From Amoebophrya sp. A120 (Eukaryota > Protista > Dinoflagellata), in contig CAJINV010000015.1 in assembly GCA_905178155.1 (NCBI GenBank), positions 643,309 to 707,308 on the forward strand: a DNA stretch of 64,000 bases. The letters are read 5' to 3'. The position numbers and the translations under genes were made by a program. Positions 21 to 63,482 of the stretch are shown one piece after another. The notes beneath the pieces are model-generated. The model saw only the letters and a program-made list of their open reading frames with translations, had not been told where the DNA came from and made no database searches. Positions within the stretch are counted from its first letter, which is position 1, and every line of letters starts with the position of its first letter.

Positions 21-772
21 CTTCTGGATGAAATCGATTCACACAAATCGACAGCTTGTCGATTGACCCACCGTGTCTGTGGATAATTAAGTCCTCGATG
101 TAACTTATTTTCGTTGTTGGCTTCACCTTTATTGTAAACTCCAGCAGCGTGCAAACTGGGGCGGCCTGATAGGATGTGTTTTTCCACCGTGATATGATCG
201 TCAAGAAGAGGCAGAAGCAGATCGGGGTTATTTCCCAAATCAATTCAGGGATAGCATGACAACTACGAGTTTGCTCTGCATAGAGGAGAAACAAATTAGT
301 ACGCATGAGAGGTGGATCAAACACAACAACAAATACGAGTTTTATCGTTGCTTGGACTTCCCGGTTGTCTATTATGGGTGTGTCAGGATTGAGATCGGCA
401 GACTGTTGAAATAGTTTGTCATGCATAAAACCGATACCAGTTAGTAGGAGGCCCAGTTATCAAGCGGCGCATGACAAATTTTCCGAGCACCGGAATCCAA
501 TTTGTCATGCTGTTTGGGCACAGAAGACTGCTTTTGTCATGCTACTTTAGCAGCTCTAGTTCAAGCCCTACACAGGCTCACAATCGGCCTCACTTGCCAT
601 TCCGGCAAGACAGGCACTTCATCCCTGGCATTTTATGCATGACAAATCATTTCAACTTTGTCGATGTCAAACCTGACGCTTCCATATCTATTCTTGATGG
701 CGTTATTACTGGGTGGTCGTACTTGGCAGCCTCCTCTACCTTCTCCTTTGCCTTCTTCGATTTTTTACCCAT
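21..772 (-). CDS. Hypothetical protein, 5' part; continues past the left edge of the window
   Basis: ATG at 772. Removing introner 373-686 plus one TSD and GT-AG intron 166-336 gives MGKKSKKAKEKVEEAAKYDHPVITPSRIDNREVQATIKL|AAPVCTLLEFTIKVKPTTKISYIEDLIIHRHGGSIDKLSICVNRFHPE; next GT donor at 20. Confidence 0.6.
373..686. mobile_element. Introner family A
   Basis: TATGG..TCAGG / CCTGA..CCATA TIR, TSD TCTAT. Confidence 0.9.
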
Positions 773-2231
773 CTTGCAGCTTGTGGTGTTTTTTGCTGTC
801 TACTTACTTCTAGCGTAGTAAGTTGTGCCAGACTTCGTGTTGTAGTGGTGGCCCCTAAGAAAAGAGTGGAGAAACAGTATCGAACGCATTATCCCACGAC
901 TCCGACTACGACCTTTTCTATATTAATGTGCGAGGCGACAATAACGATTTTGTCGACGAAAAATCTGAAACTTAAACGAATTTCTCTTCCATCTCATCTC
1001 GCACGACGGACCATCATGCTACCTCTCGACGCACTCAATCTCGTCGCAAATCTCGCGTACCTTCTAGCGCTCTCCGGTAGTTGTGATTCGAATCGCGGTG
1101 ATGCCGATGAATATGGTCACATCAATGTTGCGACGAGTGCGTGTTACCGCTACCTTTGATATTCTGCGACTACAAATTAGCACCGGGTGGAGCAACGAAG
1201 CGACGAGAGCATCAACAAACACACCAAGGGTAGTAGACCAGCACGACTGCCTCGCGGAAGCCGCGGCATTGCCCTTGCGTGTCGTCGCATTTCAAATAGT
1301 ACAGTTTGGACATTTATTCCAGTTTATTATTTTGCTCAGTAAAGGTCATTTGCTCTGTAAAAGTTCTAACCCGTAGTTGGAAGAGTAGTTCGTTGAGTGA
1401 AATTCTGTTACTCTGAAGTCGTCTGCTAAATTGCTAAATCTTTCCTGCTATTAAACCTGGTTTGTTACTCGAAATATTTCCTGCTACTCTGCTGCTGGTG
1501 CTGCAGCTAAAACGTTGTCTGATTTACTTTCCAAAAGTTGTTGTTCCCTCGTCTGCTAGAAGACGAGTCTGCTATAAGCTGTTTCTGATACTGTTAATCT
1601 AAGATATCTGTGAGGTGACTGATTCGGGTAATAAAGTTGTCTGTCACATAGGAGAAGTGTCTGATTTCTCTCTCTCGATAAAGAATCTGATACTGGTTAA
1701 GAACAAAACTGCTGATAAGTCTGTAAAGTGTAAGCTATTCTGAAAATAAGGTAATCTGTGCTCTCACGCGGCGAATGTGTAGTAAACTGGTTTCTGGCAT
1801 GATGTCTGGTGACCACGCCATTCTGATTCTATCCACAAACCACAAAACGTTTTTCTAGTTATAACTGTGTCACATAATTCAACACGCTAAGATTAAAGTT
1901 TAGAATTGTTGTTTTTGTTTCTCTGCCTGTGCATCGGACGATGTGTCTCTGTCTGAAGATTTTTTCGGCGTCTAAATCTGATTAATCACGCATACTGTTC
2001 TGTCTGTTAGCTTATTCCTGCTCTGTGCAACTGTGTAAATCAAAGTTCCAGCAAACTCGTCTTGCATTCCATATAGCTGTCTGATTCTGTATTCTGGCCA
2101 CTAATGCCTCGTCTCATGTCCAGCTTCATTTGCAGGTGGTGCACCTGCCAGTACTGTAGTTTTTACATAATTTACATTGCATTTTTTAAAATGAAGAACT
2201 CACCGTCGTTATCATGCTCTCGCCACCTAAT

Positions 2232-2493
2232 TATGAAGTGCAAAAATGTCTGGGTCTGGAAGAATGCAAGGTTTGTCATGCACATTTTGCATGACCCGTG
2301 ATCTCTGTGGTGTATGCCCCAGCATCACAAATTTTTTGCAGGCATCTTGATGCCTATCCCGCATGAGAAATGCTCTCTACGCGGAGCTAAAACTGGACGC
2401 CTCTTGCTGCTCATGCAATACGGATTTTTTTAGATTCCAAAAATAGCATCACAAGTTGCAATCTTCCAGACCCAGACACTTTTGCAATCCATA
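2232..2493. mobile_element. Introner family B at the CFAP52 stop codon
   Basis: TIR TGCAAAA.TGTCTGGGTCTGGAA, TSD CTAAT (contains the TAG stop on the minus strand). Confidence 0.9.
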
Positions 2494-5400
2494 CTAATCC
2501 AGCTGACTCAAGTCATTCATCTTCTCCTGCGCCTCCGCCGGCACCTTCCAGATGAAGATCGCGCCCTCCGAGCCGACCGAGACGAGGCACGTGTTGTCCG
2601 GCGCGAGCGCAACCCCGTTGATGGAGCCGGAATGCCCGAGACCGATCCCGCACGGCAGGCCGAGGTCGTAGTCCCAGAGTTTCACCATGCGGTCCTGACT
2701 ACCCGCGGCGAAGTGCGAACCCGAGGAAGATATCAAATGCAAATGTGTCATCTGGGCCTGGAAAGATTCCGAGATTTGTCATGCAGTTTTTCCAATCTGC
2801 GCCAAGTCTGGAAAGCAGGGCCTAGCATGATCACAGGTTCTGCAGCCCCTTGGTGATGCCCATTCTGCATGAGATACATGCCCTCTCGGCATGGCGAGAA
2901 GTGGGGACCTTTTGCAAGAAGTCATGCAACACAGATTTTTGTATGATCCGCAACACGCGTCACAAGTTCGCATCCTTCCAGACCCAGACACTTCTGCAGT
3001 TGATAGAAGACATGGAGAGAGTGGCCAGCTCGCCCTCGATCGAGCCCTCCAGGACCCGGATGGCCTGCCCGTCAAAGGTGTCCCAGTACGTGATTTTCCT
3101 GTTATTTTCACGACATTTACGTTCGTTTACCGAAAGACGAAGTCATGCTGCATGAGACAACATAATGCCCATTTGTCATGCTACCTAAATCACTATCTAG
3201 TAGAATAACAGCCACAATATTTCAATCCATACCTGTCCGTTCCGGTGGTCAAGATCTGACTCTCGTCTGGGTGGTAGGCCATAGCCTTAAACTGCGTTGA
3301 CTCGAACAGGCAGAGGGATCGCGTCTTGGAATCCAGGTCCCACAGAATGCAGCTACCGTCCGATGAAGAGGTGAAGGCCTGATAGTTTCGATTATAAACA
3401 GCTTAGTACACAGGAGCCGCGCACCATCAACACCATGTTTGTCATGCAATACACCATCAAAGTAAACAGCTCGAGCGCCGCCGCACTCGCGACGTCGCGT
3501 GAGAAGATGTTGATGGAAAAAAAGCGAAGTTGAAGAGAAGTCTACTTTTGTTTCATCACTTGCAGCATGCAATCTCACACGTCGTCCCTAGAAATTTAAA
3601 TGGAATTTCGATATAGGTACCTTCTTGTCATCCTTTGTGAGGTATGGATTGTAAAAGTGTCTGGGTCTGGAAGGTTGGAACTTGTAATGCTAGCTTTCCA
3701 TACCTAGAAAATCTGTATTGCATAACCAACAAAAGTCGCAGCCTCTTTTGTCATGCAAAAACGCAGCTTCTCATGCGGATCGCCTATGAGAAAGCGTTTT
3801 GGGAAGTTGTCGTGCCGAACTGCATTCGGAAGTGTTTTCATCATGCACATTTTGGCATCACAAGTTTCCAGACCCAGATATTTTTGCATTTGATATGAGG
3901 CAGATGCTCCACACTCTCCCTCTGTGCTCCTTCAGGGATGCTTCCATGGACTGGCTCTGCCCGCCTAACCTCCATACTCTGACTTCGCCCTCCATTCCGC
4001 CCGTGACTAGTCTTGTTCCCGTGCACGTGGTAGCGATAGCCGTGCACTGAAGGTTGTTGTTGATTTCGTTTTCCTATTCGAAGAAAGCGTGCACGACAAA
4101 AATTATAATCTACCTCATCTCTCATGCTGATCCCATGTTGTCACGCATCACAAGTTCCTGAAGTTGTTCGAAATTAAAGCAACAAGCAATAGCAAAGAGC
4201 GTCAAATAAATAAAAACTGTACCCCGTTCCTGTGTGCGTCGTTGATAACGTACTGCAATCGGCCACTTTGCGGCAAGAACGACCTGACTTTGCCGTCGCT
4301 CCACCCTGTGAGGATGGAGGACCCGTCGTAACTAAAGTCCAACGCGTGGCACTCGACGTTCGGCACCTGGATGCGCAGAAGCTCTTGCCTCTGCAATATC
4401 AAAAGGAAAAATTCCCCCTCCCCATATCGAGGACGAAACTTGTGATGCTGTATATGAGTACACAGGTCGACTTGTATTGCTAGAAGGCCGAGAGCCGCAG
4501 CTGTGGCCTCGTTTGCAGGCAATTGCCATGCTGTCTCCTAATTCCAGCCGCCTCCTGTAATGCTGAAGACGCAAGGCCTTCCCACGCCGCCAAGCACTAC
4601 AGTGTCTACAACATCCTTTCCCTTCTAGCATGACAAAGCTGATTTGTGGCCACAGATCCGCATCACAGATTTCCGTTGGACGAGGGGAGATTTTTCTTCT
4701 TGATATGCAAGGCGTCCCACACTCGGATGTCGCTGCAGGAGGACGTCTATGCATTGCAAAAGTATCGCACAACTCGTAGTAATCCCAGACATGCATGACA
4801 AAGCTGGTTTCCTATACTGATTTAGCATTTACAAATTGCACTTTTTATGTCGCGGAAATTTATCATGCGTTTAATTACTACTTTTGAGATACTTTTGCAA
4901 TGCATAAGGTCACGAAGACTCGGGAAAACCCCCTTGGGAACTTGACCGCGTTAATGCGCTCGAAGTGGCAGGAGTTTCGGAGCTCGGCCTTAAAAGTATC
5001 CAGGTTCACCCAGTACATGTTCGCCTTGTCCGTACCGACGAACCTGAGAAAGTATTTTCATGGTCGTTGAGGGCTTTTGATGAAAATTTCCAATGACAAA
5101 ATTTGTAATGCTGATGTACCTTACGAATACGAAAAAGGTTCTACTTAATGCATGATTGCAATACGAGTACGATACTTTTGCACAGGATACGAGTAAGTTA
5201 GTACATGTGTGTGTTGTCGGCCGTTTTTGCGATAGAGGTAACACCACCCATCAGTGGTTCCTTGGTCATTGCTCTCACAGAAAGGTCTGCTGCGCTGAAT
5301 TTTACCTGGCAAGAAATCATGTGACAACTTTCAACTTTGATGGACATGATCCTTGCTGTTGATCGCATTTTTCGTGGTGTCGATCATGCAGCACAAACTC

Positions 5401-7873
5401 ACGTCTTCAGACCCACAAGCGGCACCATGGCCGCGAAATTCATCTGTACCAACAGCCCCGCCCCTGTTCCGCAGATGATGTCTCCGTTGTCCAGGATTAG
5501 TGTGGCGGTGATTCCCAATGAGAAGTTCTTCTTGTTCCCCGCAGACCGCTTGTAGAGGCATCGGCCGAGCTGGATCTGCAGCAGGTCACCGGTTTTCGTG
5601 CCGCAGTAAGCAAACTCATCCGCTTATGCATTGCAAATATGTCTGGGTCTGGAAACCTGTGATGCTGAATTGAGCACGAGTGAAGCGCTTGCAATGGCAG
5701 CCAAGCATGACAAGTTTTTGAAACGCCTGCTGATGCCTAGCACGCATCACAAATAATTGCGTTTTTGCATGACAAAGAGAGTTCCGCTTTTGCTGCTCAT
5801 GCAACACAGATTTTCCAGGAATGCAAGACACGCGCCACAAGTTCCACTGTTCCAGACCCAGACATATTTACATTTGATACCGTTGCGTCAATCACTAAGT
5901 TCGTTGTCTGCCGCTTCAGTTGACCTGATAATTGATTTCATATAATGCAGTGAGTTCTGAATATGAAAAATGAATTTATCGTGCAGCAACTGCAAGAACA
6001 GGACCGCGGACGATCGAAAAAGAACGGCATGCGGAAAGAACCAAACACCTCCTGTCAAGTGATGGCAATCGCCTTTGATGGCTGATGTAAAAGATGATTA
6101 GTTGTAGCGAGTAAGTACATCTACATATCAACAAATCTATACCGAGTGCACAGGGCGTTGGTCGGATTTTCTTGTTTTGCAGGTCGATGCGCCACGAGGT
6201 AACGTGATAGTTTCCCGCGTATCACAGGAAAAAGTGTTGACGTAAACAGAATTTGTAATGCGGTAACGCATGACAACACGCGCCCAGATTTGTCATGCAT
6301 AGCATGCACGCCAGGCACGATTTGTCATGCATATTTGCAATCTATGAAAACCGTTAACGTTAAGACTTTTTCCTGTGATACCGCGGTGACGAGTTTCATG
6401 CTGTCGTTGTTGAAAAACTTGACATATCCTGTGCAAAAGTATCGCACTCGTAGTAATTGCAGTCATACATTACAAATCTCTTTCTTCAGGCAAATCTGCA
6501 TTACAAATTTAATTTCTCATGCTAAGAAAATTTGTAATGCAATCCATACTACTACGATGCTTTCGCATTTCATATGACACAATGCGCGCTGTCATTGCCC
6601 GCTGGGGTTCCGCAGATGGCCGAGCCTGTGGATCGAATTCATTTGGATGGATAATTTAGAAGGTGGCTGGTTTTGCTGTTGCTCTTGCTGTGCATAAAAA
6701 TCTTCATGCATGGGCATCAGCATGACAAACACAACTACAAACAGATGGATCGATGGGTCGATCGTGATAATTCGTATTTCGTAAAGTTCGAGGAAAAATG
6801 CAAAAGAAATAGTACCGTTCTGCATGTCCCACACTACCAATGAGTTGTCGTCCTGCCCACCGAGCGATGCGAGGAAGAGTTCGTCGGGCGAGAAGCAGAG
6901 CGCCTTGACTTCGACTTTGTGCAGGTTGAGTCGGTATCTTTCTTTTCTCTGGTTGAAATCCCAGACAATGATGTCTGCATTGAAGCCCATGAAGGTGCAT
7001 TGACCTTTTCATGTTAGTTTGTTTCAAGATCAAGCAACATGATGTTGCGGAGTACGAGTAGAAGCAAGTAAGAAGTACCTACGCATGTAGTTGGCAGTCT
7101 CCATCTGAGTCATGCTCATGCGTTGATATTGCGGCGCATGACAACATTAAAATAATTTCAAACAGCACAATCACGGTAGAGGTACCTGACGCCATGAGGT
7201 CTCCTGATTGTGATACCGTGATGCAGTTAACATCGTTATCGTGCCCCTGCAGAAAGCTCTGCGTTCGCTGGATCACGTTTCGTACCTGTAGTTTTTGTCA
7301 TACTATTTTTGTCAGTGTCTAGCAGCTTTATTCATCATACGGAAGAAGTAGTTCCGCAACACAAGATTTCTTATTTTTCCTGGAAGAATGGAAGCTGGAT
7401 GTTGTTTCGCAATACAAAAAATCAAAGGAGCGCGCTGCTCGTTCTCGAAGCAGGTTTGAATACCACGACGGTGCATCCCAGCGGAAAAATGAGGTGTTCG
7501 TTGTCGGGGTGTAGGACCAGCCCACTGGATATGAGATTGCACAACTCCTCTTGTTTCCCTCGTCTGAAGATGTCATGCAAGATACCACACGAACACCCAC
7601 ACTCTGCCTCGCGGCGCTGCTTGCATGACAGGTTCATCCGAAAAGTAAAGACGCGAAATAGAACCACGCCGCGACGCTTATTTCTTTGAATTTGTCATGC
7701 AGATCATCATGCAGGAGACGCTGCGTGTGCGCCGTTCTCTTTCTTGCCACCGCTACTTCTGTTGCTGTGAATGCACTCCAAATAGAGGGAAAACAGAAGC
7801 TGTGCACCCGGATACTTGGCACGGTGCCCTTGAACCCGATGACGGCTTGGAGCTCAAGCGCGTCAGACGCCAT
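2494..7873 (-). CDS. CFAP52: Cilia- and flagella-associated protein 52 (WDR16), WD40 repeat protein, multi-exon
   Basis: Exons give LELQAVIGFKGTVPSGLVLHPDNEHLIFPLGCTVV, FLQGHDNDVNC, FMGFNADIIVWDF, LHKVEVKALCFSPDELFLASLGGQDDNSLVVW, TGWSDGKVRSFLPQSGRL, YHPDESQILTTGTDRKITYWDTFDG, GHSGSINGVALAPDNTCLVSVGSEGAIFIWK, closely matching CFAP52 as I recall it; both GT-AG and introner introns. Confidence 0.93.
2731..3005. mobile_element. Introner family B
   Basis: TAT..ATA ends, family B TIR, TSD GAAGA. Confidence 0.9.
3103..3231. mobile_element. Decayed introner that now reads as a GT-AG intron (3099-3232, minus strand)
   Basis: TAT..ATA ends, perfect TSD CCTGT, internal TTTGTCATGC, TIR lost. Confidence 0.7.
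3643..3895. mobile_element. Introner family B, reverse orientation
   Basis: TSD TGAGG, family B TIR. Confidence 0.9.
4397..4705. mobile_element. Introner family D
   Basis: TIR TATCAA..GAAAA.T.CCCCCTC, TSD TGCAA. Confidence 0.88.
4748..4906. mobile_element. Introner family C
   Basis: TIR TATGCATTGCAAAAGTATC, TSD ACGTC/AGGTC. Confidence 0.88.
5625..5879. mobile_element. Introner family B
   Basis: TSD CCGCT/CCGTT, family B TIR. Confidence 0.88.
6220..6380. mobile_element. Introner family J
   Basis: TIR TATCACAGGAAAAAGT, TSD CCGCG. Confidence 0.88.
6425..6574. mobile_element. Introner family C
   Basis: TSD TGACA, family C TIR. Confidence 0.88.
7530..7814. mobile_element. Introner, minor family (CFAP52 intron 1)
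   Basis: TAT..TGCACA / TGTGCA..ATA ends, TSD CTGGA/CTTGG; removal gives TVPSGLVLHPD. Confidence 0.8.
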
Positions 7874-9839: not shown

Positions 9840-10160
9840 TATCAAAAGGAAAAATCCCCCCTCCCCATACTGAAAAGGTATATTTTTGGAAATTTGTAAT
9901 GCTGATTTGCGGCCAAAATCGAGTCTGTCTTGCAAGAACGCAACTCCGCAGACAACCGCCGCATTGCGCAGGCGGTTTGTCATGCTGTTGGGCTTACAGA
10001 GCTAACATCTGTCATGCTAGTCGCCTACGTCCAAACCTCCCGACTCAGGCTTGGCATATGCCTGGAGTCCTCTCTAGCAAGACAGACCTGATTTGTGTAC
10101 GCAAATCCAGCATCAGAAATTTCGTTTCGATATGGGGAGGGGGGATTTTTTCCTTTGATA
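9840..10160. mobile_element. Introner family D; host gene not identified
   Basis: Near-perfect TIR TATCAAAGGAAAAATCCCCCCTCCCCATA, TSD TCACA. Confidence 0.9.
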
Positions 10161-18360: not shown

Positions 18361-19839
18361 CTATCGCATTCCCATCCCCAGAGCTAGTGTCCACAAAGAG
18401 CAGAAGATCAGAACTTCCTCCTTCTGCTTCCGAAATTCCTCCACGAGGCGGTTCAGTTCCGCCATGAGGTTCCACTTGTCCACGACAAAAGCTTATGCAC
18501 TGCAAAAGTATCGTACTCGTGTAAATGCATTACAAATTTTATTCTCAGCATGAAAAATAAAATTTGTAATGCGGATTTGACTTAACGAAAATATTTGTAA
18601 TGCATGATTGCACTACGAATACGATACTCTTGCACAGGATAAAACTTGGCAGAATTCTCCCTCGTCCAGTTCCTGCTTCACGTTTTGATTCTCCGTATCC
18701 TGTGCAAAAGTATCGTTCTCGTAGTAATCGCATTTATGCATGACAAATCTCTATTTTTCAAGGTAAATCAGCATGAGAAATTCCATCTGTCATGCTGAGC
18801 AAATTTGTAATGCGATTAGTACTAGTGCGTGTGCGATGCTTTTGCAAATTCATACTCCGGTAGCGAGCAGTCCACGTCGACCTCGATGAAGTCAATTACC
18901 TCGCTATCCTACGTAAAAACGTCCCCACACCATAGTCAAGATGGGAACTCTGCAACATAAATCTCCAAGTTTTGGGAGTTCTGCATCCCAAGTTTCCATC
19001 TGCAGTGTAGTGGTGGGTAGCAAGGAAAGCCGCATGAGAAAGCCATTTACTCATGCTGTTTGCAGCATTACAAATTCCAAAACACGACTGGAAATGCCTC
19101 TCAAGGAGATGCGCATTACAAATCGATTCCTGTTATTGCGCATTTGCATGACAACTTTGGTGTGGAGGGAACGTTTTTACACAGGATACTCGTCCGTGAT
19201 GCCCGGAGAGAGAGGAAGCTTTTTCAATAAAATCGGCGGAGTTGTTCTTGACGTTGATTCAGTTCCCTCGTCTTGTTCCCACGACCCGGCTGTGCTTGGT
19301 GGACCACTAGCTGCTGCTACTTGTGGCACATCCTGCTCCGGGACAGCCGTACTGCCAGAACTTGTATTCGTAATCACCTTCCCAACGTACCCCGTCTCTT
19401 CCTTTAGTTCCCGCAACGCGGCTTCTGTCACCGTTTCATTTCTATGATGGTCCACCAAGCCCGCCGGGAGTTCCAAGGTAAAAGCGTTCACTGCGGGCCG
19501 AAACTGCTTCACTAGAAGGATTTTCTCCTTGTTTTCTGGATTTAGTATTTCTGTCGGTGAAGAAGTTGTGCCAGTCTGGTAATTCCGTAAAGTTGCAAAA
19601 ATCGCCACGGCATCGATGCTGGATGAATCATTTTTTCTTGCTGCTGCTGCAACATTGTCCTCTCCTCCAGCTGCAGAAGTCGGGCTGGGTTTCGTGGTTC
19701 TCACCACTCTGTCCCATTTCCGCTCCCGGCCCGTCTGGTCTGAGTAGGTCAAAGTTTCCAGCCGGATCCATTTGGATTGGCCGACGAGGGCGGTCTTCGC
19801 GAAATCAACGGCGGGTTGGTGGAGCAGACGGCTCGTCAT
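18361..19839 (-). CDS. NUDT5: ADP-ribose pyrophosphatase, Nudix hydrolase (NUDT5/Ysa1-like), 4 exons
   Basis: KWIRLETLTYSDQTGRERKWDRVVR, LVKQFRPAV, Nudix box ELPAGLVD..ETVTEAALRELKEETGY, SPGITDE; removing three introners gives ...NQNVKQELDEGEFCQV...LWTLALGMGMR*. Confidence 0.88.
18494..18641. mobile_element. Introner family C
   Basis: TSD AAGCT/AAACT. Confidence 0.88.
18696..18854. mobile_element. Introner family C
   Basis: TSD CTCCG. Confidence 0.88.
18905..19188. mobile_element. Introner family E
   Basis: TIR TATCCT..GTAAAAACGT.CC, TSD CTCGC/CTCGT. Confidence 0.88.
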
Positions 19840-51100: not shown

Positions 51101-54100
51101 TTCCCGTCGGTGGTTGCCCTGGAGTTTTGCCAGCTGATTGTTCACTGCCTCGCGCCACATCTTCTGCATTTCCTCCTTCTGCTTCACCTGTGTGGCGTTC
51201 TCAACTGTTACATTCTCAACTGTCACATGATGGATCTGTGATGCAAAAGCACCACTATTATCCACACGATGATCAAGCTGCTTCGCATGATAAATTTGCA
51301 AAGTGCTAAACATTACCTAAATCCGACCGTGCGGAATTTGTAATGCTACAGGCGCAACCTCCACCCTTTCACGTTTCTCGTTCTTGCGTCACAAATCCAC
51401 GCAACAGTTGAGAATGTAACAGTTGAGAACGCCATAAACTGGCGCATCTCCTTGTAGAACGTTTCCAGACGCTATGGGGGTGTCAGGATCGAAATCGTCA
51501 AAGTTGAAATTGAAATAGTTTGTCTTTGTCATGCATAAAATGCAACGCAGAAATTGTCTCTATTGCAGAGGACGCAAGAGAGGCAGACTGTAAGCCTGTT
51601 GAGGGGTAGAAACTGAGGTGCTCACGTAGCACGACAAAAGGCGTCTTCCTCATCCAAACAGCATGACAAACTGGATTTGGATTCTACCCAGATTTGTCAT
51701 GCGCCACTTGGAAACTGGGCTTCAACTGGCCTCCATTTTATGCATGGCAAATTAAGTATTTCAACTTTGTCGACTTCAATCATGACAGGTCCATAGACGC
51801 GCCCGCTTCTCCCGTTTCTCGGCATCGTCGTTCGGAAACCGATTTTTATTCTCTACTTCCCCGCCCAAGTCCAAAAACGATCGCGCGCTGAAATTTCGCG
51901 CACCTACCCGGCCGGTGCCTTGTTCCTCCCCTGAAACATGAAGATCCTGCGAAGATTCGTGGTTGGGTGGCACGGGCGTGGGCTGCAGCAACGTGGGCAG
52001 CTTTATTTTATTGCGATCGTTTTCATTCTCTCTCTTCGGGCTCAGCAAACCGAAGGGATTCTTTTTATCCTGATCCTCATCTCCGCCATCAATCATGGAG
52101 TTCTTGTCATCATCTCCCCCAAGGACGGAGGACCGGGAGATCATGCGAGAAGATTTCTCTGCTGGAAGTAGTTGTGAAGACTGCTCCTTGTCTTCACCAT
52201 CACCACCACGTGGTCGACCGCCGGGCATGGGCGAAGAACAAGATTCGTCGAGTGCAAAGAAGCCGGACAATTCCGACCTAGCAGCACTCGCAGGTACAGG
52301 CGAGCCCATCGGGTAGTCGGAGTACTCCATGTTCCACAGATGCTCCTCCAGCATGCCAAACTCCGATTGCGCCGGAATTTCGCTCAGCTCGTTCAGTTCC
52401 GAGAGGGCAGATGACCGGTCGTCCTGCTGATCACTCCTCCGATTTTTGTTTCTGCGACCTCCTCTGTTGCTGCCCGGAGTCACCAGGCCACTCATGTTCA
52501 GATCGTTGGGCGCCGTCCCCACCACGTCTATTGTCGAAAGGTCGACCTTATAAACTGCAAAAATGTCTGGGTCTGGTTCTGGAAGAGTCGGGGCTTGATG
52601 TCATGCAGATTTTGCAAGACCCGGCCCCGGGAGGTCTGTGATGCTGGTGCTAGCATCACAGATTTTTTGAGAGCTTCTTGATGCTAATTACGCATGAGAA
52701 ATGCCCTCTCTGCGTGCCAAGAACGGACTCCTCTTGCTGCTGCTCAGGCAACACAGACACTTTTAGAGTCCGCAAACAGCATTACAGGTTCCACTTTTCC
52801 AGACCCAGACATTTTTGCAATCCATAGACCTGGCTTACGTCGAACACGGAGACTTCGGCAGCTTCGTCATCGTCTCCATCTCCGGCGTATCAACTGTAAA
52901 AGTGTCTGGGTCTGGAAGAATTCGAGACTTATCATGCAGCTTTTGCGTGACCGATGAGGTCTGGAATGCAGGACCTAGCATGACAGATTCTGTACGATCT
53001 TTCTCATGCCTATCCTGCATGAGAAACTGCCTCCCGACTTGGTCAAAACTGGGAGACTTTTGGTACTTAATCATGCAACACAGATTTTTGCATGCTTCAG
53101 ATTTGGCATGACAAGTTGCATTCTTCCAGACCCAGACACTTTTGCATTTAATACAGCGGCTTGCTCGACGATGTTGTCCTCCGTCTTCCGGTATCAAATG
53201 CAAAAGTGTCTGGGTCTGGAAGATTTCTAGACTTGTCATGCAGGTTTTAGATGAGTCTTGATGTCTGTCATGCGTGCCCTAGCATCACAGATTTTTTGAG
53301 GGCTTCTTGATGCCTATTCCGCATTACAAATCAATGCCATCTCCACGTAGCAAAAATCACACTCCCTTTGCTGCTCATGCAATACAGATTTTTTTGCAAT
53401 CCAAATGCAGCATCACAAGTTCCAATCTTCCAGACCCAGACATTTTTACATTTGATATCCGGCGCTTCGGGTTCCGCACGGGCGTGGACGCTGATGAAGC
53501 CTCCTGTTTGACTTTGACCTTCACCTTTGTCGTGCTTTGTGTGCCCTCATGATCTCCAAGAAAGCTCTCTTCGACGTGTAGTTCTTCCTTTGTTCCCGAA
53601 ACCACACTACTTGCATCAAGCAACGCGTCTTTGATCTTGATCGCCGAAATAGTACTAGGATCTTCTTCGTCCACCTTCAACCGGGCACCAGCAGCTGACT
53701 CCTTGACTCTCTTTTTCCGCGCCTCCTCGACCATTTCCTGCTTCACGATCTCCGCGGCATGCGGTGCCGAGTAAAACTCCGGCCGCTGGACTTTGTCCAC
53801 TTTCTCAAACTTCTTCAGCCGTTTCTGCAGGACGTGATTGCGCATGTGGTCAATGTCGAACGTCTGCAGTTGGAACCCGTTGCTGTAGTCGTAGTCCGGC
53901 ATGTGCTATCAAATGTAAAAATTATGTCTGGGTCTGGAAGAGTCATGCTGTTTTTGCATGACGCGGCAGAAGGTTTGCCATGGAAGCTCTAGCATCACAG
54001 GTTTCGAGAAGCTTCCGACATGCCGAATCCGCATGACAAATCCCCCATTTTGGTGACAGAAAGTGGGCAGCTTTTGCTACCTATGCATAAGAGATTTTTC

Positions 54101-57014
54101 TGTGTTCTGAAATGCGCATTACAAGTTTGTATTCTTCCAGACCCAGACATTTTTGCAATGTATATGTGCACTTTGTCTTCGCAGAACTTTCGTACCGTTT
54201 CCGGGTCATCCTTGTTGACATTGTTTTTGAAGAAGATGTGATTCTTCATGGCCACTTCCTTATCCAGAACTGCCACACCTTTCTCGGGCTGCCACTTTTG
54301 GTTCTTAACCGCCTCGTCCATCTCTTTCCATTTCTGCTGCATGTGAATCGCCTGTCTCGTCTGCTGTTTCAGGTATTTTCGGTTGTAGGGTTTGTAGATG
54401 CTGTCGTGGCCCCGCCGGCCAAACGCTGCACTTTTCCCCATGTCCTTCTCGAGCAACAAATTGAACCGCTGCTCCTTGTCCGTCGTTTTGTTCTCGAGGA
54501 GGGAGTCGCGCTGGACTTGTTGTGCCATGCTGCTGGTCGTGGTCTTGGTGGCATCGGTATGTTGAATTTGATGCGAAGGAGCAAGAAGAGCATCGCCATT
54601 GCTATTGCCAGCTGCAGCATCCTGTTGATGATCGTGGTCCCGCATGACAACGTCAGCTTCGTGGTCCTCATCCTCGACTTCCTCTTTGTGTTCGAGCAAA
54701 ATGGAAGCGCCAACATCTACCTCCACAGTGGGGGCTTTAGTGCGACGTGTACTATCATCTGCCTTCGCCGTAATTGAAGAGCTGTCGAATTCCTCTAAAA
54801 ACCGGTCCAACATGTCCTCGCCCCAGAGATAGGAAGTGAATGCGGATTTCTGTTCGGCACTAAGCTCTTCTGGTTGTGGCGGTGCTGGTGGTTGCTGAGA
54901 GGAGTTTGTTGTTGACAATTGTTGTTCATCATGGTCTTTCTGGTTTCTGTGCATCAGTGACTTCATCTTCCCGCCGGTGCCATCTTCGACGGCACCAGTG
55001 TCGTTCGTCTCGCTCACCACACCGTTGTTCCCGTGCGGAGCGACGAGAACCTATCGAGGGAAACGATTGCGTGTAGAAGTGTAGCTCCTGTTTTGGACTC
55101 ACAGCTCCGCAACAAATTCGCTCTGATGCATGATAGAAAAAGCTTTTCATACACCGCTAGTAATTGAAGCAATGTGATATTGACATCACTTATGATGAAG
55201 TGACGAGGCTCTGAAGTAGATGGATGCCGACATGACAAAGTTTTACATGTCCTAATTCCGCATCAGAGAATCACTATAGTTCTTACACTAAGCACAGTTT
55301 TTCATCTCTCGATAGAATCTCGTAGGGGTTCGCTGTCGCCGCGTGTTTCAATAAATTTGTCAGGCCGGAGCAAGATGCTGCTTGGTTTTTGTTTTGCAAC
55401 TGACCAGCCTTTTCTTTCACCGCGGCCTTGACCGCGTCCTGGTCGGCGACCACGTTGTAGACCGAGACGCCGACATTATCCTCGAGTTCGTAGTTGTAAA
55501 ACCGGGGCAGCGAATCCTTCATGTACATGCCCGTCAGAATTCGGTCGTGGTGTTATGCATTGCAAAAGTATCGCACTCCACTCTCGTACATTAAGTAATT
55601 GCAGTCATGCATGACAAAATGTCGCTCCAAACTTGAAACAACATTACAAATTCCACTTGTTTTTTTGCCGAAATTATTTCTGATGCTATTAGTGCTAGCA
55701 CGTTAATATTTCTGCGGTGCATAGGTGCTCGCGGTCAGCGATTTCTTCCTTGGTCCAGGTGGTGCAGTTCAGGTAGTGCTCCCGCGAAGTCATCCCGAGA
55801 AGCCGCCCCTCCTTCATTTTTTCGGTTTTCGGAAAAACGTAGTCCCCCCAATCGATGTTGTCTTTGAAGAGGCTGTAGCCATCGTCCTCGAAATTCTATG
55901 CATTGCAAAAGTATCGTACTCGTATAAATGCATTACAAATTTTCTCAGCATGAGAAATGAAATTTGTAATGCAGATTTGCCTTAAGAAAAAGATTTGTAA
56001 TGCATGAATGCAATTACTACGAGTACGATACTTTTGCACAGGATAAATTCTTGTTCTTCACGACGTTCTCCACCCAGCTTTTGTCAAAGTCTTCCACGTT
56101 GCCCAGCTATCAAATGTAAAAATGTCTGGGTCTGCAAGAGTGCATGTTTGTCATGCTTGTCTGGCATGACTCTTAAATCTGTCATGCACGTTACCCAAGA
56201 GCTCCGCTTTTCTGTGATGCAGAGGCGCAGTTTGTCATGCAGAATAGGCAACACCTAGGAGCTCAGAAATTTGTCATGCTGAGCCAGCATTTGTAGCGTC
56301 CTCATGAGACGCCACCCAGCATCACAAGTTTCCAGACCCAGACATTTTTACTTTTGATACCAACCTCTCCTTCTCCACATCGGGGATCAGAGACTCCGGG
56401 TGGACCGGTTTCTTCGCCTCCGTGGCGTGTTTGTAGGCAATGGAGTCCAACCCCTTCATCAGATGCTGAGTCACGATCGCGGATTCCTTAAAGCGGTCGA
56501 GTTCCGGCTTCACGGGCACGACGGACGGCTTGTATTTCGGCAGGTCGACGTCACTGTCGCTCGGATCCTCCGGGTTCTGCTTCGGAATCCAGAACTTCTT
56601 CTTCCACGCTGCCCGATGCTCCTGGCGACGCGCATCCTCGAGCTCGTAAAACTGGTCCCGCGTTAGCCCTTTTCGTCCTCGTTCCGAGGGTTTCTGGCCG
56701 GTTTTGTTGTTCGCGCTGTCTGTCATGCTGGAGTTTGTCATGTCAACTTTAATAGCGTCTCCAGTTGTTCTAGCGACGGCAGACGCAGCGCTGATGTTCT
56801 CCTCGGGTGCAACTTCATCCTTCACTTCAACTTTCTTGTCCGCCTGCTTCCCTGCTTTCTTCGCTCCAGCTTTTTTCTTCGGTTGCGGTTCGTCCGCACC
56901 CTGTTTCCCAGCAGCATTGGAGGTCTTGGCTTCTGGTTCTGCGTCTTCGGGCGGGAGCAGCGTCTCCGCCCCGGACTTCCGTTTTGCGGTATTTTTCTTG
57001 CTTTTATTGTCCAT
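21152..57014 (-). CDS. Giant orphan protein (about 6,300 aa, 61 exons), Lys/Glu/Asp-rich, no domain recognised
   Basis: ATG at 57014 (MDNKSKKN) to TGA at 21152 (..GNLFKTT*). I translated all 60 junctions by hand; each keeps the frame after removing element plus 5 nt (58 cases) or a GT-AG intron (40365-40579, 49177-49455). Confidence 0.82.
21387..21694. mobile_element. Introner, minor family
   Basis: TIR TATTACA.TGAAAA.TGCCCCC, TSD TTTCC. Confidence 0.88.
22516..22834. mobile_element. Introner family D
   Basis: TSD CGCCG. Confidence 0.9.
23892..24204. mobile_element. Introner family A
   Basis: TSD GTGGT. Confidence 0.9.
24367..24635. mobile_element. Introner family B
   Basis: TSD CGACG. 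Confidence 0.9.
25351..25611. mobile_element. Introner family B
   Basis: TSD CTCTT. Confidence 0.9.
25665..25943. mobile_element. Introner family E
   Basis: TSD TCCCG. Confidence 0.9.
26073..26338. mobile_element. Introner family B
   Basis: TSD AATCC/GGTCC. Confidence 0.87.
26483..26632. mobile_element. Introner family J
   Basis: TIR containing GTGTTAACGTTA, TSD CATCA. Confidence 0.88.
26724..26879. mobile_element. Introner family C
   Basis: TSD CAACC. Confidence 0.9.
26998..27321. mobile_element. Introner family A
   Basis: TSD TCAAT. Confidence 0.9.
27383..27534. mobile_element. Introner family G
   Basis: TIR containing TTTTCCCGTACA, TSD CGTGT/CTTGT. Confidence 0.85.
27608..27896. mobile_element. 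Introner family E
   Basis: TSD TGGCC/TGCCC. Confidence 0.87.
28014..28186. mobile_element. Introner family C, degenerate
   Basis: TSD GCGCT/ACGCT. Confidence 0.82.
28725..29058. mobile_element. Introner family C with an internal insertion of about 185 bp
   Basis: TSD GATCT/AATCT; extra sequence 28772-28956. Confidence 0.85.
29160..29433. mobile_element. Introner family B
   Basis: TSD CATCC. Confidence 0.9.
29483..29627. mobile_element. Introner family C
   Basis: TSD TCGTC/TCGTT. Confidence 0.9.
29717..30004. mobile_element. Introner family E
   Basis: TSD TCCCT/TCCCC. Confidence 0.85.
30584..30735. mobile_element. Introner family C
   Basis: TSD TTTTC. Confidence 0.9.
30856..31321. mobile_element. 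Probable solo LTR (466 bp) nested in the introner
   Basis: TGTTA...TGACA ends (TG..CA), 5-bp TSD TCATG on both sides. Confidence 0.72.
31383..32178. mobile_element. Non-autonomous TIR element (MITE-like, 796 bp, GC-rich) nested in the introner
   Basis: 43-bp TIR TACGKTAGRGAAAACTGTCCCCACTACCCCGGTTTTCCCCAAA (2 mismatches), TSD CTTTT. Confidence 0.9.
32391..32574. mobile_element. Introner family J
   Basis: TATCACA.GAAAA TIR, degenerate TSD, frame restored. Confidence 0.8.
32755..33019. mobile_element. Introner family B
   Basis: Family B TIR, TSD diverged, frame restored. Confidence 0.82.
33059..33215. mobile_element. Introner family C
   Basis: Left end AAT, TSD CATGT/TACGT. Confidence 0.8.
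33590..33795. mobile_element. Introner, minor family
   Basis: TAT..CTA ends, TSD GAGCT. Confidence 0.82.
33870..34180. mobile_element. Introner family A
   Basis: TSD CTCCA. Confidence 0.9.
34251..34460. mobile_element. Introner family G-like
   Basis: TSD GTGGG/GCTGG, frame restored. Confidence 0.8.
34648..34935. mobile_element. Introner family E
   Basis: TSD GTCTC. Confidence 0.9.
35016..35168. mobile_element. Introner family C
   Basis: TSD ACCGG. Confidence 0.9.
35245..35552. mobile_element. Introner family A
   Basis: TSD GAAGA. Confidence 0.9.
35638..35795. mobile_element. Introner family G
   Basis: TSD TTTTC/TTTTT. Confidence 0.83.
35834..36164. mobile_element. Introner family C containing a T-rich low-complexity tract
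   Basis: Family C TIRs, TSD GGATC/CGGTC; T-rich tract at about 35957-36112. Confidence 0.8.
37187..37449. mobile_element. Introner family B
   Basis: TSD GTTCC. Confidence 0.9.
37520..37832. mobile_element. Introner family A
   Basis: TSD AGCTT. Confidence 0.9.
39771..39925. mobile_element. Introner family G
   Basis: TIR containing GTAAATTTCCCGTAC, TSD CCTGG. Confidence 0.9.
39985..40306. mobile_element. Introner family D
   Basis: TSD AACCC. Confidence 0.9.
40365..40579 (-). other. GT-AG intron of the giant gene
   Basis: CAG|GTATAA...TCCAG|GCT joins WQEQ|AMDE. Confidence 0.75.
41586..41730. mobile_element. Introner family C
   Basis: TSD AGTAG/AGAAG. Confidence 0.88.
41826..42094. mobile_element. 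Introner family B
   Basis: TSD GGGTG. Confidence 0.9.
43474..43738. mobile_element. Introner family B
   Basis: TSD CAAGT. Confidence 0.9.
44183..44405. mobile_element. Introner family F, in frame and stop-free
   Basis: TIR TAT.CAA.GAAAAAAGTGTTACAG, TSD TCGCA. Confidence 0.9.
45147..45295. mobile_element. Introner family C
   Basis: TSD GCATC. Confidence 0.9.
45364..45625. mobile_element. Introner family B
   Basis: TSD TAGCC. Confidence 0.9.
46368..46678. mobile_element. Introner family A
   Basis: TIR intact, TSD CCTCA/CCCTG diverged, frame restored. Confidence 0.87.
46745..47005. mobile_element. Introner family B
   Basis: TSD TGCGG. Confidence 0.9.
47308..47661. mobile_element. Introner family A with internal GGGTTCCAAC duplications
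   Basis: TSD CCGAT. Confidence 0.9.
47707..47855. mobile_element. Introner family C
   Basis: CAT..ATA ends, TSD CGTGG. Confidence 0.88.
48186..48378. repeat. 92-bp tandem repeat (2 copies plus a partial), each with a GC-rich hairpin
   Basis: CGCTAGTGG recurs at 48186, 48278 and 48370. Confidence 0.9.
48772..48948. repeat. 13-bp minisatellite CRCCTGTCAAGGT, about 14 copies
   Basis: Counted directly. Confidence 0.95.
49177..49455 (-). other. Canonical GT-AG intron of the giant gene
   Basis: GAG|GTAAGT...CCCCAG|CC joins EMRA LFEE. Confidence 0.85.
49940..50224. mobile_element. Introner family E
   Basis: TSD TGTCT. Confidence 0.9.
50467..50739. mobile_element. Introner family B
   Basis: GAT..ATA ends, TSD TCCCG. 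Confidence 0.87.
50891..51082. mobile_element. Introner family F
   Basis: TSD GATCA. Confidence 0.88.
51191..51436. mobile_element. Introner, minor family
   Basis: TIR TRTGGCGTTCTCAACTGTTACATTCTCAACTGT, TSD ACCTG/AACTG. Confidence 0.88.
51473..51795. mobile_element. Introner family A
   Basis: TSD GACGC. Confidence 0.9.
52549..52826. mobile_element. Introner family B
   Basis: TSD GACCT. Confidence 0.9.
52888..53153. mobile_element. Introner family B
   Basis: TSD CGGCG/CAGCG. Confidence 0.9.
53192..53457. mobile_element. Introner family B
   Basis: TSD TCCGG. Confidence 0.9.
53907..54164. mobile_element. Introner family B
   Basis: TSD TGTGC. Confidence 0.9.
55052..55314. mobile_element. 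Introner, degenerate minor family
   Basis: TATCGAG..CTCGATA ends, TSD GAACC/GAATC. Confidence 0.8.
55554..55723. mobile_element. Introner family C, degenerate
   Basis: TSD GGTGT/GGTGC. Confidence 0.83.
55897..56045. mobile_element. Introner family C
   Basis: TSD AATTC. Confidence 0.9.
56108..56359. mobile_element. Introner family B variant
   Basis: TSD CCAGC/CCAAC. Confidence 0.88.
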
Positions 57015-57820
57015 CTTGCCACTAGCTGGTGCCAGTGCGGCTGATGTTTCCAACGCGACGGGGCCGACGAGACTCGTTCGATCGTGGTTGCGGGCTGCAG
57101 GTGGAGTTGAGCAACTTGAAGTTGTTAATAGACGAGAGGACGAACAAAGACACACAACATGTACGTTCCTTGGTCAGAGAAGATCACACAACTTCTACAT
57201 CACGGATCAAACAGTATTTGACTTTGACGCGAGTGAGTCTGTGTCCTCAATAATATTCATCGTGAAAGGTGGCGCGTGCGAGAGCTTTGAAATCAGCGTT
57301 AGCGTTCTTTGATCCGCTCATCAATACTGCTATCTCAATCTCGTCGCACTCGCTCTCAACAGCTCGCGCACCAACATGATGCCGCCAGCGCTATTCTCTA
57401 TACTCTATACTGGTTCTGATTTACTGTTTGTCCTCAATCAGAATCACACACATTCATGCCCTTCCAACCAAGCGTGGCTAGTTGTTCTTGGGCAAAACTA
57501 GTTGTATTGATGATGACGGGTATAATCACTAGTATTGTAATTTTTTCCTCACACATTCCTCGCGTCGCTCCTTTCCACTAGACAATACCCAAGTATCCAA
57601 TTTGATTGTCTTTACGTCGGTTCAAACTCAAGGGACAAGAACACACATTAACACACCTCGAGCACAAGCTTCAGCATCCTTTTTCTTCATGCCTCGTCGC
57701 AGCATCGATTTTTCTTGGCGCAATCCTACAAAACTAGTGCATTATAAGTGCTGGAGTGAAATAGGAGTATATTGTCGTGTCATCTGCACATGAAGCTGCT
57801 TACGCAGCTACTTTTCATTT

Positions 57821-60599: not shown

Positions 60600-61618
60600 G
60601 TTATTCAGGAAGGCGCCGGTGTTCTTGGAACTTGAGAAGCAGAGGCAGTAGGAGGCCGAAATCGCCTCCAGATCTTGTCGGCGCAGCTGTATTTAAATTT
60701 GTCTTATGTTTCCGAAACCGATACCCATGCGTGGAAACAATCTGTAAAACAATAACTGTCTGAGTCTTCTTCATTTTTAAACTATAGCGCGAAGATCATC
60801 TTCGTGTGTTCGTCACGAATAAGAGGAGCAGCGAGTTGTATACCACGACCTTGGCTCTCTTGTATAGAAACGCTCAGAAAGACGGCCCGATTTCTTTTAG
60901 GCTAGTAGACCATAACACTCATAAACTCGTCCTGCCTTCAGCATCTTGTCGTCCCTCTTTGCGACTTCTACTCATTTCTTCAACGCGATTTCTTATATGT
61001 TAATGTCCGCGACAACGAGAAGCAGCCTTTGCCTTTAATTCGTGAATAGAATTATTATTATAGGGACCACGACAAATAAGAATAACGTGGGTCAGACGCG
61101 GATAGTATCACGAAGAAGTAGAAGTAGCAGCACGACTCCGCTGGAACAGATTCCTAGTCGTGGAAGTCGTTGCGTAGAACACTATGAAGACTTCACCAGC
61201 AGGTAGCCAGGTTCTTTGCGTGCTGTGTCTGTTTTTTGTAACTAATCTTTTGCAAAATAAACTACACAGGCACGAGATTAACCTCCGCCCACACACAACT
61301 GACTGCTGCATCAGCAGCACAGGCCTCCTCAGCACCATCAAAGGCAGAATCGCTGGGGGCGGCCGCACGCTGCAATAAATTTTCCTCGCTCGTCCGGATC
61401 GCCAAGTGCCATGGCTGGGTCGAAATGCTAGCAGTTGCCGTTGTGATGAACTACGAGGGAGCGACGTGACGGCCCTCGCAGCAGATCGCCGTCGCAGAGC
61501 CTCATCGATGAGTAATGAAGCTGAGTGTGAATAAAGATGAAACTGGAGCGAGAAGCTACAGCTGTACAACCCCAACCACTCGGAGTAGACAATTAGGATT
61601 AGCACCAGGTTAGATGTA

Positions 61619-63482
61619 TTATCTTGCCTGCAGCGGATTGGTCCCGTAGCCCGACTATGAACTGCAAAAGTATCGCACTCGTATAAATGCATGACAAAGT
61701 CCCTCAGCATGAGAATTAAAATTTGTAATTCGGATTGACCTTGAGAAAAAAATTTGTAATGCATGAGTGCAATTAAGTACTACGAGTACGATACTTTTGC
61801 ACAGGATACCGACAAGCCCCCGACAACCCAGCTTTGCTCCTCGATGGGGAGTGCGCGAAAAAACTTTTCGAAAATCTGCACCCGTTGCTCGTCCAGAGAT
61901 TTCTGCGTCGGGAGCAGGACCGGAGTTGTAGAGGAGGTGCTAGAAGAAGCTCCACCTGAAGTTGATGTGCCCGCCGTACTGATCAGCCGTTGCGGTTTGT
62001 CTTTCAACTCGACAAAGTAGTACACCCACTGTTCCTATCCAGGAAAAGACACCCATCCCCATCCAATTTGTCATGCAAAACACGCATAAGTGCCAATGTT
62101 TGTCATGCAAAAAATGGATGGGGATGGGTGTTTTTCCTGGATAGTTCCGGGTACGTCACTTGCATGGATCCCTCGTCTAGAATCACGTCCTCCAAAAGTT
62201 CCATCCCACCGCGGATGTTCCTCGCCAAGTGCCTCTGGTTCGTCTGCTCCAGTTATGAGAGTTCTACTACTGCGCAACGAGGACTCCTCCGCACTTGTCG
62301 GGCATAAGCAGCAATACAAGCGTCGGCAAGACCAAGAGAATAAAGAGTGCACGTTGATTTGCATGACCACAGATTCACGCGAACAAGATCGTGGTCCTGC
62401 TTGGGCTCCTGCCAGACGAGCCTGCACCTGTCATGCAAACAGTGCCAAGAAGCAAAGACCAGCCTTAGTATAGATACTTTTGCATGACAAATGAGGGGTC
62501 CTCACAGTACCAGTTGTGCATTCTCGTACCAAAAGATCGATCAGACGGCGGATGAATTTTTCCCGCTTTGTGTCCGAATTGTTCCAAAACTCCGTGAAGA
62601 GCCGCATCCTTTGGGGGTAGGTGAGACGGTGCTTGAAAAAGTTCAACACGTCGTCGCTAACATTCTTAGTCGTCAAAAACGGATACGAACCCTCCGGAAA
62701 GGGTTTGGTGTGCTCGCTATCGAAAAAGCTGCACTTCAGCGGGTTTGTTTTAGATTTACCGGTTTGGCTTGATGAAGAAGAAGCAGAAGGAGTTGTTGAC
62801 GCGTTGCTTTTATCGTAAAGAAGTCCACCCCAACTACCGGAAGACGACGGCTGTGGTGCAGCTCCTACTTTCTTCAAAAGCTTTGGCTGGTGCGCCGCAG
62901 CAGGATCGGTTGCAAGAAGGGTATTGGTGTAGTTCGTCGGCGAAGAACTCATCGTTCCACCAGGCAACATTTTCTCGACCGCACCACCGGAACCCTTGGA
63001 GCTAGAGTTTGAGTTTTTGCCGGCTCCTGGTCCTGCTGCAGAGTTAAAATCATGCTGTCTTCTTAGTCGCACGCTGTGGTGCTGATCCTCGTCGGTTGAG
63101 TGCGATGTTGCGTCGGAATCCGAGGAGGCGCCTTCTGTATGGAGGAGGAGAAGAAAAAAACTCTATCGGAATAAAAGCACCAAATGCTTAAACATAAATC
63201 TCCGAACCAAGTATATCATAATTGCTGGTCATCATCATGACAAAACTTGATGGCCGCTACCGTCGCTTTCTTGAACAGAATAGAGACGATGCAAAAGAAC
63301 TAGGAGCAAAGAATGTTGATGAAACTCCAGTCCAGGATACAACAATCGCGCGCAAGAAAGAAGGCAGCACAGAGCATACCTGAACAATCCTTGGTGTAGT
63401 GCTTGCAACATAGCCCCTCCCCCGACGGTGGTTTTCTTCTTGGATAGATGTTCGCCCATTTCGAGTAGTCGATAGGAGGCAT
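61619..63482 (-). CDS. Hypothetical protein with an N-terminal IDYSKW motif (reminiscent of the Cdc37 N-terminus)
   Basis: MPPIDYSKWANI|GASSDSD..., ORF 62431-63072, inferred GT-AG intron at about 62245-62530, then MNQRHLARNIRGGMELLEDVILDE..YPE|QWVYYFVELKD..GLS|GYGTNPLQAR*. Confidence 0.6.
61656..61808. mobile_element. Introner family C
   Basis: TSD CCGAC. Confidence 0.9.
62036..62143. mobile_element. Introner family L (108 bp, shortest seen)
   Basis: TIR TATCCAGGAAAA.ACACCCATCCCCATCCA, TSD GTTCC. Confidence 0.92.
63138..63446. mobile_element. Degenerate introner
   Basis: TAT..ATA ends with AGAAGAAAA inverted repeat; TSD unrecognisable, but removing element plus 5 nt restores the frame. Confidence 0.65.

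Follow-up and report, generated by a model that had tools for sequence, protein, structure and literature searches.

In a 64,000-nucleotide stretch of Amoebophrya sp. A120 (contig CAJINV010000015.1, positions 643,309 to 707,308; termed here the window), 83 elements with TAT...ATA ends and 5-bp target duplications were catalogued at positions 373..63446, and 34 of these are spliced from RNA together with 5 further nucleotides (nt). The introns likely share a single geometry throughout, N-TAT...ATA-NNNN, in which one base precedes TAT and four follow ATA, and nearly all of the elements carry an internal motif, GCATNACAAA, which also occurs in ordinary GT-AG introns. The elements are of a known kind, the published A120 introners, as an earlier note on this DNA had recognized from their inverted and direct repeats. 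The single splice geometry, the rule of T at +2 and A at +3, and the spaced motif held in common with ordinary introns appear to be undescribed.

Elements and their ends

The earlier note had described about 80 such elements, belonging to more than ten dissimilar families with one grammar and flanked by duplications of no sequence preference. The elements and the lack of preference were both borne out. TAT is exact at both ends in 74 of the 83 elements, TGT being found at just 2 of 166 ends; the duplication is perfect in 51 and has at most one mismatch in 72. Lengths lie between 108 and 362 bp in 80 elements, and the three longer ones measure 566, 1037 and 1535 bp. The window has 46 TAT..ATA pairs that combine a perfect duplication with a good inverted repeat, while 20 Markov nulls gave 0–3. 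When direct repeats combined with inverted repeats were scanned without bias, direct repeats of 5 bp were the only ones associated with TAT starts, in 35 of 39 cases in the window and in 210 of 214 cases in related loci. These comparison loci are 151 non-redundant loci (555 kb) from the 160 of a metagenome scan, and they contain 327 elements. No base or target preference was detected in the duplication in either the window or the loci. Selection for G at +1 or for a terminal AG within the duplication was also considered and was ruled out in the window, where AG occurs in 3 of 83 (11 of 129 in the loci).

The elements are short and non-coding, with inverted repeats, a duplication and many copies in both orientations, as in MITEs (miniature inverted-repeat transposable elements). 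Coding sequence flanks 81 of the 83, and every host gene examined lies on the minus strand; two elements, 10946-11307 and 63164-63446, were catalogued mainly on the reading frame. The end pattern had no matches in viral contigs. With window and loci pooled, 13 families of at least three members are present in addition to singletons, and the motif is found in all 13. The shared grammar stands. The dissimilarity of the families stands in part: the motif extends beyond families that can be aligned, but many families have a common loose end consensus, and on this resemblance of their sequences they may be distantly related. Family sizes in the loci are biased, as the loci were found with the end of one family. 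CpG positions in element middles mutate slightly faster than other positions (9.8-12.0% vs 8.1-9.3%), a possible trace of methylation.

Removal from RNA and the splice register

Splicing was read from contigs of two sequencing runs presumed to be RNA. Among the joints listed, element plus 5 nt is removed at 22 direct joints. In a first set, which includes the CFAP52 transcript, 15 of 50 joints are listed, of which 7 remove element plus 5 nt, 7 remove GT-AG introns and 1 joins two repeat copies; in a second set, all of the 15 joints listed out of 16 remove element plus 5 nt. Record-length arithmetic supports the removal of 12 further elements, giving 34 of the 83, with the remainder lying outside the compared stretches or lacking informative cover. 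Elements in either orientation are lost from the transcript, and the exon pieces shown for the spliced CFAP52 contigs contain no mismatched letters. As the earlier note had proposed, removal of the elements restores CFAP52 and NUDT5, yielding a 621-aa WD40 protein and a NUDIX protein whose exon pieces match the CFAP52 and NUDT5 structures. Its statement that most elements lack GT-AG boundaries was also upheld, as none of the 34 spliced elements is GT-AG at the +1 register (defined below), and 25 different end combinations are seen among them. Hairpins were strong in the two elements folded, with z = -6.7 for the hairpin of element 26073-26338.

A perfect duplication permits six equivalent cuts, and a mismatch between its copies narrows the choice; the register is defined here as the number of bases before TAT at which the intron starts. 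Register +1 is compatible with 23 of 23 junctions (offset 0 with 20 and +2 with 18), as well as with 5 of 5 in a second set, for a total of 28 of 28. One junction is free of ambiguity:

26069..26339, minus strand: intron containing element 26073-26338, joint 26068>26340, read as C-TAT...ATA-GGAT, for which only +1 is allowed.

Offset 0 is excluded by three more elements (28014, 28725, 33059) and offset +2 by four more (4748, 27383, 32391, 32755), with the mismatched duplication of copy 4748..4906 leaving a cut at offset 0 or +1. As family copies of opposite orientation have the same register (4748 and 28014 vs 33059), it is not set by element direction; all tested genes are on the minus strand, and thus transcript direction and chromosome strand are not separated.

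At this register the T and A of the element sit at intron positions +2 and +3, matching the GTAY donors found in 11 of the 12 host GT-AG introns. The +1 base has the composition of the flanking background, with G in 27 elements, A in 23, C in 20 and T in 13; every one of the 16 final dinucleotides is seen, AG just three times. All 83 window elements have an unbroken TA at the RNA 5' end, as do 128 of the 129 locus elements with a strand call; pooled, breaks number 1 of 212 at that end and 9 of 212 at the 3' end (p = 0.02), the 198 of 327 locus elements without a strand call being set aside. The commonest third-base change at the RNA 5' end is to TAC, the main donor of the host. Published donor tables agree with the register once they are read as N-TAT: the nine main A120 classes in Table S4 of PMC7789003 all start NT and the nine main A25 classes all start TT, and in the PMC12130899 dataset NT donors account for 6681/9716, 892/1322 and 383/540 introns of three A120 families (67-71%).

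One element is at the same time an ordinary intron. The GT-AG intron at 3099..3232 (minus strand) is also the TAT...ATA element 3103-3231, with a perfect ACAGG duplication, and the +1 register gives it canonical ends; its inverted repeat has decayed (4/14) and the motif is kept.

The internal motif

A matrix built from the elements detects the motif GCATNACAAA in all window elements but one (82 of 83) and likewise in all locus elements but one (326 of 327). The string GCAT.ACAA alone occurs 176 times in the window against 6 expected. Per kb, matrix matches number 15.8 in elements and 6.65 in GT-AG introns, compared to 0.38 in coding exons and 0.59 in the remaining DNA; the enrichment over exons and other DNA that the earlier note proposed to test genome-wide is thus present in the window. 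Its claim that the motif marks the elements was confirmed for all but 11963-12528, which has none, and needs to be widened, as 10 of the 12 GT-AG introns also contain it. The motif-less element serves as a natural control for a motif requirement; a second one was observed at L017:1641-1751.

Of the 34 spliced elements, 26 present both GCATNACAAA and its complement in the RNA, 3 present GCATNACAAA alone and 5 the complement alone. A reading of the motif as single-stranded RNA in a single orientation is ruled out by the last two groups. Of 21 families or singletons with at least two matches, 13 have same-orientation copies at a distance of 30-33 bp, where the null gave 3.2 on average and never more than 9 in 5000; one relative of the largest family and elements above 400 bp were dropped from this count. 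A distance of about 31.5 bp corresponds to three turns of the DNA helix. The occurrence of the motif in either orientation, together with this recurrence, indicates a double-stranded DNA site, although an old tandem duplication may produce a spacing that looks alike. The outermost copy usually lies 35-60 bp inside the element end.

In 394 copies, private substitutions are rarest in TAT/ATA (0.9%), followed by the motif core (4.2%), and reach 8.3% in the middle and 8.8% at end positions 4-16. The two copies of the duplication differ at about 4.6% per position by our own arithmetic, with copies of three or more mismatches excluded; the lower value for TAT indicates that it is constrained after insertion. 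Single motif copies decay at about this neutral post-insertion rate, which fits sites used in transposition, or redundant sites of which one suffices. The duplication mismatch is a weak age clock, with the middle moving from 8.1% to 9.3% and the motif from 4.1% to 4.8% (p = 0.09).

Proposed mechanism and alternatives

A model of two layers is given an even chance of being correct: a predicted transposase that binds the motif would move the MITE-like elements, and a relaxed spliceosome would remove them from RNA through TA and a hairpin. Its splice geometry is well supported, and we infer the spliceosome to be the machinery. A DDE enzyme, possibly integrase-like, would bind the array of motifs, which begins some 35-60 bp in from each end, and would cut at TA and insert with a 5-bp stagger and no target preference. 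The transcript loses element plus 5 nt whichever the element orientation. The intron, N-TAT...ATA-NNNN as forced at one junction and fitting all 28, would need T and A at +2 and +3 and leave +1, -2 and -1 free. TA would then be used by the spliceosome as the donor core, and the paired ends would replace the AG signal, with the acceptor placed four bases past the stem. Insertion at NNAGG would create a canonical GT-AG intron with a hairpin free to decay, for which 3099-3232 is the one example. The earlier note had proposed one trans-acting machine reading both the termini and the motif in all families; the common grammar, splicing without GT-AG and motif enrichment agree with it. A single machine reading both signals stays a hypothesis, and the data separate two layers, with the TAT/ATA ends setting the splice register and the motif behaving as a DNA-level site.

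Several points weigh against this two-layer model. Ordinary spliceosome chemistry does not easily accommodate a +1 base and final bases that are unconstrained; taken alone, just one junction settles the register; and retention levels and minor cryptic sites stay hidden in contigs. End positions 4-16 are conserved no better than the middle, and thus the exact stem sequence matters little. Pfam searches of 17 window frames and of 114 of the 201 long locus frames revealed no transposase or integrase. The long TAT..ATA element encoding a DDE transposase that the earlier note had suggested looking for was not found, nor was any long coding TAT...ATA element or autonomous partner with matching ends, in 64 kb plus 555 kb, a small sample of the genome; long TAT...ATA candidates in the loci proved to be nested insertions or chance pairings. 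PMC7789003 likewise reports no transposase in A120. One A120 intron family is reported in the PMC12130899 data to be Mutator-like with 8-9 bp duplications, so TAT ends with 5-bp duplications are not the sole route to an intron. Lastly, the motif in the 12 GT-AG introns is far above its level in other non-coding DNA (p = 1e-7), and motif-bearing introns without homology to the element families are not predicted by a role in transposition only.

This last point is the basis of an alternative in which introns of the host are marked by the motif. Bound to it on double-stranded DNA, a factor that may be a domesticated transposase would take the place of U1 and bring in the splicing machinery during transcription, and carrying several copies would let the elements spread in exons. 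We regard this as unlikely, yet a possibility to be taken seriously. The first 11 GT-AG introns contain 15 motif matches against 1.0 in shuffles, and 8 of the 9 in the CFAP52 gene have the motif. Ten of 11 tested show no homology to the catalogued families (at most 12.6 bits), compared to about 58 bits for simulated relics with an equal number of motifs; relics too decayed for detection keep the motif in just 10-38% of simulations, a comparison that covers the catalogued families. Strong motif matches outnumber end-like matches in the GT-AG introns by 11:1, where neutral decay gives about 2:1, a borderline difference. The sole intron with a textbook GTAAGT donor (49177-49455) lacks the motif, U1 small nuclear RNA was undetected in A25 and A120 according to PMC7789003, and redundancy of the motif could mask selection on single copies. 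On the other hand, the motif is absent from that intron and from the RNA-verified 5925-6142, two matches (20333, 20796) lie in transcribed DNA that is not spliced, motif decay is close to the neutral post-insertion rate, and 9 of the 12 introns belong to one gene. The GT-AG intron 5044-5204 contains half of an element of the ~150-bp family (5098-5189), which implies insertion into an existing intron and reveals a route by which the motif could arrive as debris. Orphan motifs in the loci were not enriched between donor and acceptor patterns (13/68 vs 12.6%, p = 0.14); an ab initio search there gave 26 of 191 candidate GT-AG introns with the motif (null 9.8), in which false candidates dominated, and it was not relied upon. 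Motif retention in GT-AG introns that have no hairpin is unaccounted for by the two-layer model, and co-option by the host is possible. A combined form, somewhat more doubtful still, would have introns marked on DNA: a transposase-derived protein would bind the spaced GCATNACAAA in both intron kinds and pass the introns on to a spliceosome without U1, for which TA at +2/+3 and a stem would be enough to position both cuts.

Removal by a non-spliceosomal endonuclease and ligase, measuring from the RNA stem with a 1-nt 5' and a 4-nt 3' overhang, a route also suggested for the non-conventional introns of euglenids and diplonemids, would make the TA likeness to host donors a by-product of transposon ends. 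The background-like +1 base, the 16 final dinucleotides, the 25 end combinations among 34 spliced elements, the strong hairpins and the whole removal of a 1535-bp element would all be expected of such a system. It is nevertheless improbable, given that conservation of TA is stricter at the RNA 5' end, the commonest third-base change yields the host's main donor, the same register makes one element a canonical intron, and nearly all spliceosomal proteins are present according to PMC7789003. It is very improbable that the motif and its 32-bp spacing are left over from a single ancestral transposon end and are read by nothing today: the loose end consensus common to many families and an old 32-bp tandem duplication could give this pattern, but in 5 of 5 families conservation is higher in the motif columns than in the middle, the motif mutates half as often, and sequence between motifs does not align across families. 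That the joined forms are DNA, from empty alleles or programmed excision, is scarcely credible. The RNA nature of the two contig runs is presumed; still, the CFAP52 contigs also drop GT-AG introns with no other letters in the exon pieces shown, the unspliced stretch is covered in two other runs to 0.84 and 0.77 of its words, and the cut is asymmetric and independent of element orientation.

Relation to known systems

The A120 introners of PMC7789003 agree with the present elements in starting with TAT, then seven looser bases and a run of A, and in having inverted repeats of 8-20 nt, direct repeats of 3-5 nt, non-canonical ends, many families and no A120 transposase; lengths of about 108, 150, 210, 260, 280 and 310 match A120 rows of the PMC12130899 dataset. 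They differ in that PMC7789003 describes the splice position as variable or unknown and gives no end signature, whereas here one register fits 28 of 28 junctions with a uniform 5-bp duplication. The internal motif is not described in the text of PMC7789003, whose figures could show more, and no description of the motif, its spacing or the fixed register was found in the open literature, subscription papers not being covered. For one A120 family, number 38 in PMC12130899, '5-bp TSD, TA/TA termini' is noted, as here; it is about 808 bp long with integrase-like homology, and is a candidate trace of the mobilising enzyme. In the dataset, however, the TA/TA note belongs to that family alone, and other families have duplications of 2-6 (once 11) bp or none, with mixed splice models.

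Ginger2/Tdd elements (PMC2836005) are also inverted-repeat DNA transposons with an integrase-like enzyme, and TDD-4 and TDD-5 make 5-bp duplications; they have TGTNR ends, mostly 4-bp duplications and a target preference, unlike the TAT ends, absence of preference and absence of any enzyme seen here. In the non-conventional introns of euglenids and diplonemids (PMC3935182, PMC12621601) a stem likewise joins the ends, direct repeats blur the junction, a MITE origin is proposed and the mechanism is given as unknown; intron positions in euglenids were fixed using repeat-free cases (PMC3935182). The conserved pairs in euglenids are +4/+5 with -7/-6 (CA/TG), whereas here they are +2..+4 with -5..-7 (TAT/ATA), which match the host donor core and are accompanied by the motif array. 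The introner-like elements of Symbiodinium and Polarella (bioRxiv 10.1101/2020.10.14.339549) are inverted-repeat DNA transposons that make introns in dinoflagellates, with 4-nt duplications and near-canonical splice sites, in contrast to ends that need no G or AG. Compared to U2-type introns with GT-AG ends, the +1 and last two bases are free here, and only T+2/A+3 is common with host donors.

In PMC7789003, the absence of any splice signature is reported for over 60% of the introns of Amoebophrya A25 and A120, and their mode of removal is described as an open question. If the single rule N-TA...stem...NNNN is true, much of this apparent disorder is junction ambiguity within the duplication; the rule would explain TAT at both ends in every family, allow correction of gene models and define precise mutations for testing. 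The likely fixed register and the spaced motif together provide a testable rule for the splicing of these introns, and the common motif is a bait for finding a transposase or an intron-definition factor.

Host genes and individual elements

The host genes and GT-AG introns of the window are as follows.

2497..7870, minus strand: CFAP52 gene, 621 aa, with 9 elements and 9 GT-AG introns (3099-3232, 3379-3620, 4047-4222, 5044-5204, 5306-5449, 5925-6142, 6626-6815, 7005-7185, 7286-7463).
18364..19848, minus strand: NUDT5-like gene with 3 elements.
21155..57173, minus strand: 6326-aa frame, open once elements and 2 GT-AG introns are removed, with RNA joints.
166..302, minus strand: GT-AG intron with one motif, placed from frame and ends.
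40365..40579, minus strand: GT-AG intron with three motifs, including a pair at a distance of 32 nt, placed from frame.
49177..49455, minus strand: GT-AG intron with a GTAAGT donor and no motif, placed from frame.

No Pfam match was obtained for the 6326-aa frame in the three exons scanned. One RNA contig spans 18247-33420 and beyond, covering the long gene, an unspliced gap at 20001-21155 and the NUDT5-like gene, which may be read-through or overlapping untranslated regions.

The element families of the window, with copies named by their start positions, are listed below.

2232..2493: example of the ~262-bp family, joint 2226>2494; 20 copies (2232, 2731, 3643, 5625, 24367, 25351, 26073, 29160, 32755, 37187, 41826, 43474, 45364, 46745, 50467, 52549, 52888, 53192, 53907, 56108) plus the expanded 30807 copy.
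4748..4906: example of the ~150-bp family; 19 copies (4748, 6425, 18494, 18696, 26724, 28014, 28725, 29483, 30584, 33059, 35016, 35834, 41586, 45147, 47707, 55554, 55897, 58899, 61656) plus the expanded 48036 copy.
373..686: example of the ~311-bp family; 10 copies (373, 13098, 23892, 26998, 33870, 35245, 37520, 46368, 47308, 51473).
18905..19188: example of the ~285-bp family; 6 copies (18905, 25665, 27608, 29717, 34648, 49940).
4397..4705: example of the ~320-bp family, with a direct joint; 4 copies (4397, 9840, 22516, 39985).
27383..27534: example of the ~155-bp family; 4 copies (27383, 35638, 39771, 58005).
6220..6380: example of the ~160-bp family; 3 copies (6220, 26483, 32391).
62036..62143: example of the ~110-bp family; 2 copies (13520, 62036).
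Other small families or single copies: 7530, 10946, 15516, 21387, 33590, 34251, 44183, 50891, 51191, 55052, 62254, 63164.
30807..32341: 1535-bp element, ends of the ~262-bp family around inserted DNA with a nested inverted-repeat element, joint 30801>32342.
48036..49072: 1037-bp element, ends of the ~150-bp family around a GC-rich insert with tandem repeats; the frame is kept on removal.
11963..12528: near-perfect palindrome of 566 bp lying in a 1218-aa frame, with TAT...ATA at its ends and a 5-bp duplication that is perfect, but lacking the motif; no splicing was seen under sparse RNA cover.

In the ~285-bp family, the motif copies all point in one direction in the four RNA-supported copies, and both element orientations are spliced. 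Copies of the ~262-bp family in the window have the same orientation relative to genes in 18 of 20 cases (p = 0.0004), a bias with no clear replication in the loci (34:23, or 34/57, p = 0.18).

The 1535-bp element at 30807..32341 is spliced out whole. The nested element within it, at about 31390-32172, is a different inverted-repeat element of about 780 bp with an interior free of motif matches, and its two frames gave no Pfam match; a further unexplained insert lies at about 30860-31310. The insert at about 48125-49015 inside the ~150-bp family element is GC-rich, with a duplicated unit of about 90 bp and a 13-bp tandem array, and a similar insert is found at L021:505-1608. Conserved genes are present in loci L018:2635-6090, L017:9890-12352, L012:2-4790 and L042:7581-9257, encoding a C5 DNA methylase, an SNF2 helicase, a DNA ligase with a DRMBL domain and KIN17, and these could be of use in mapping true intron positions.

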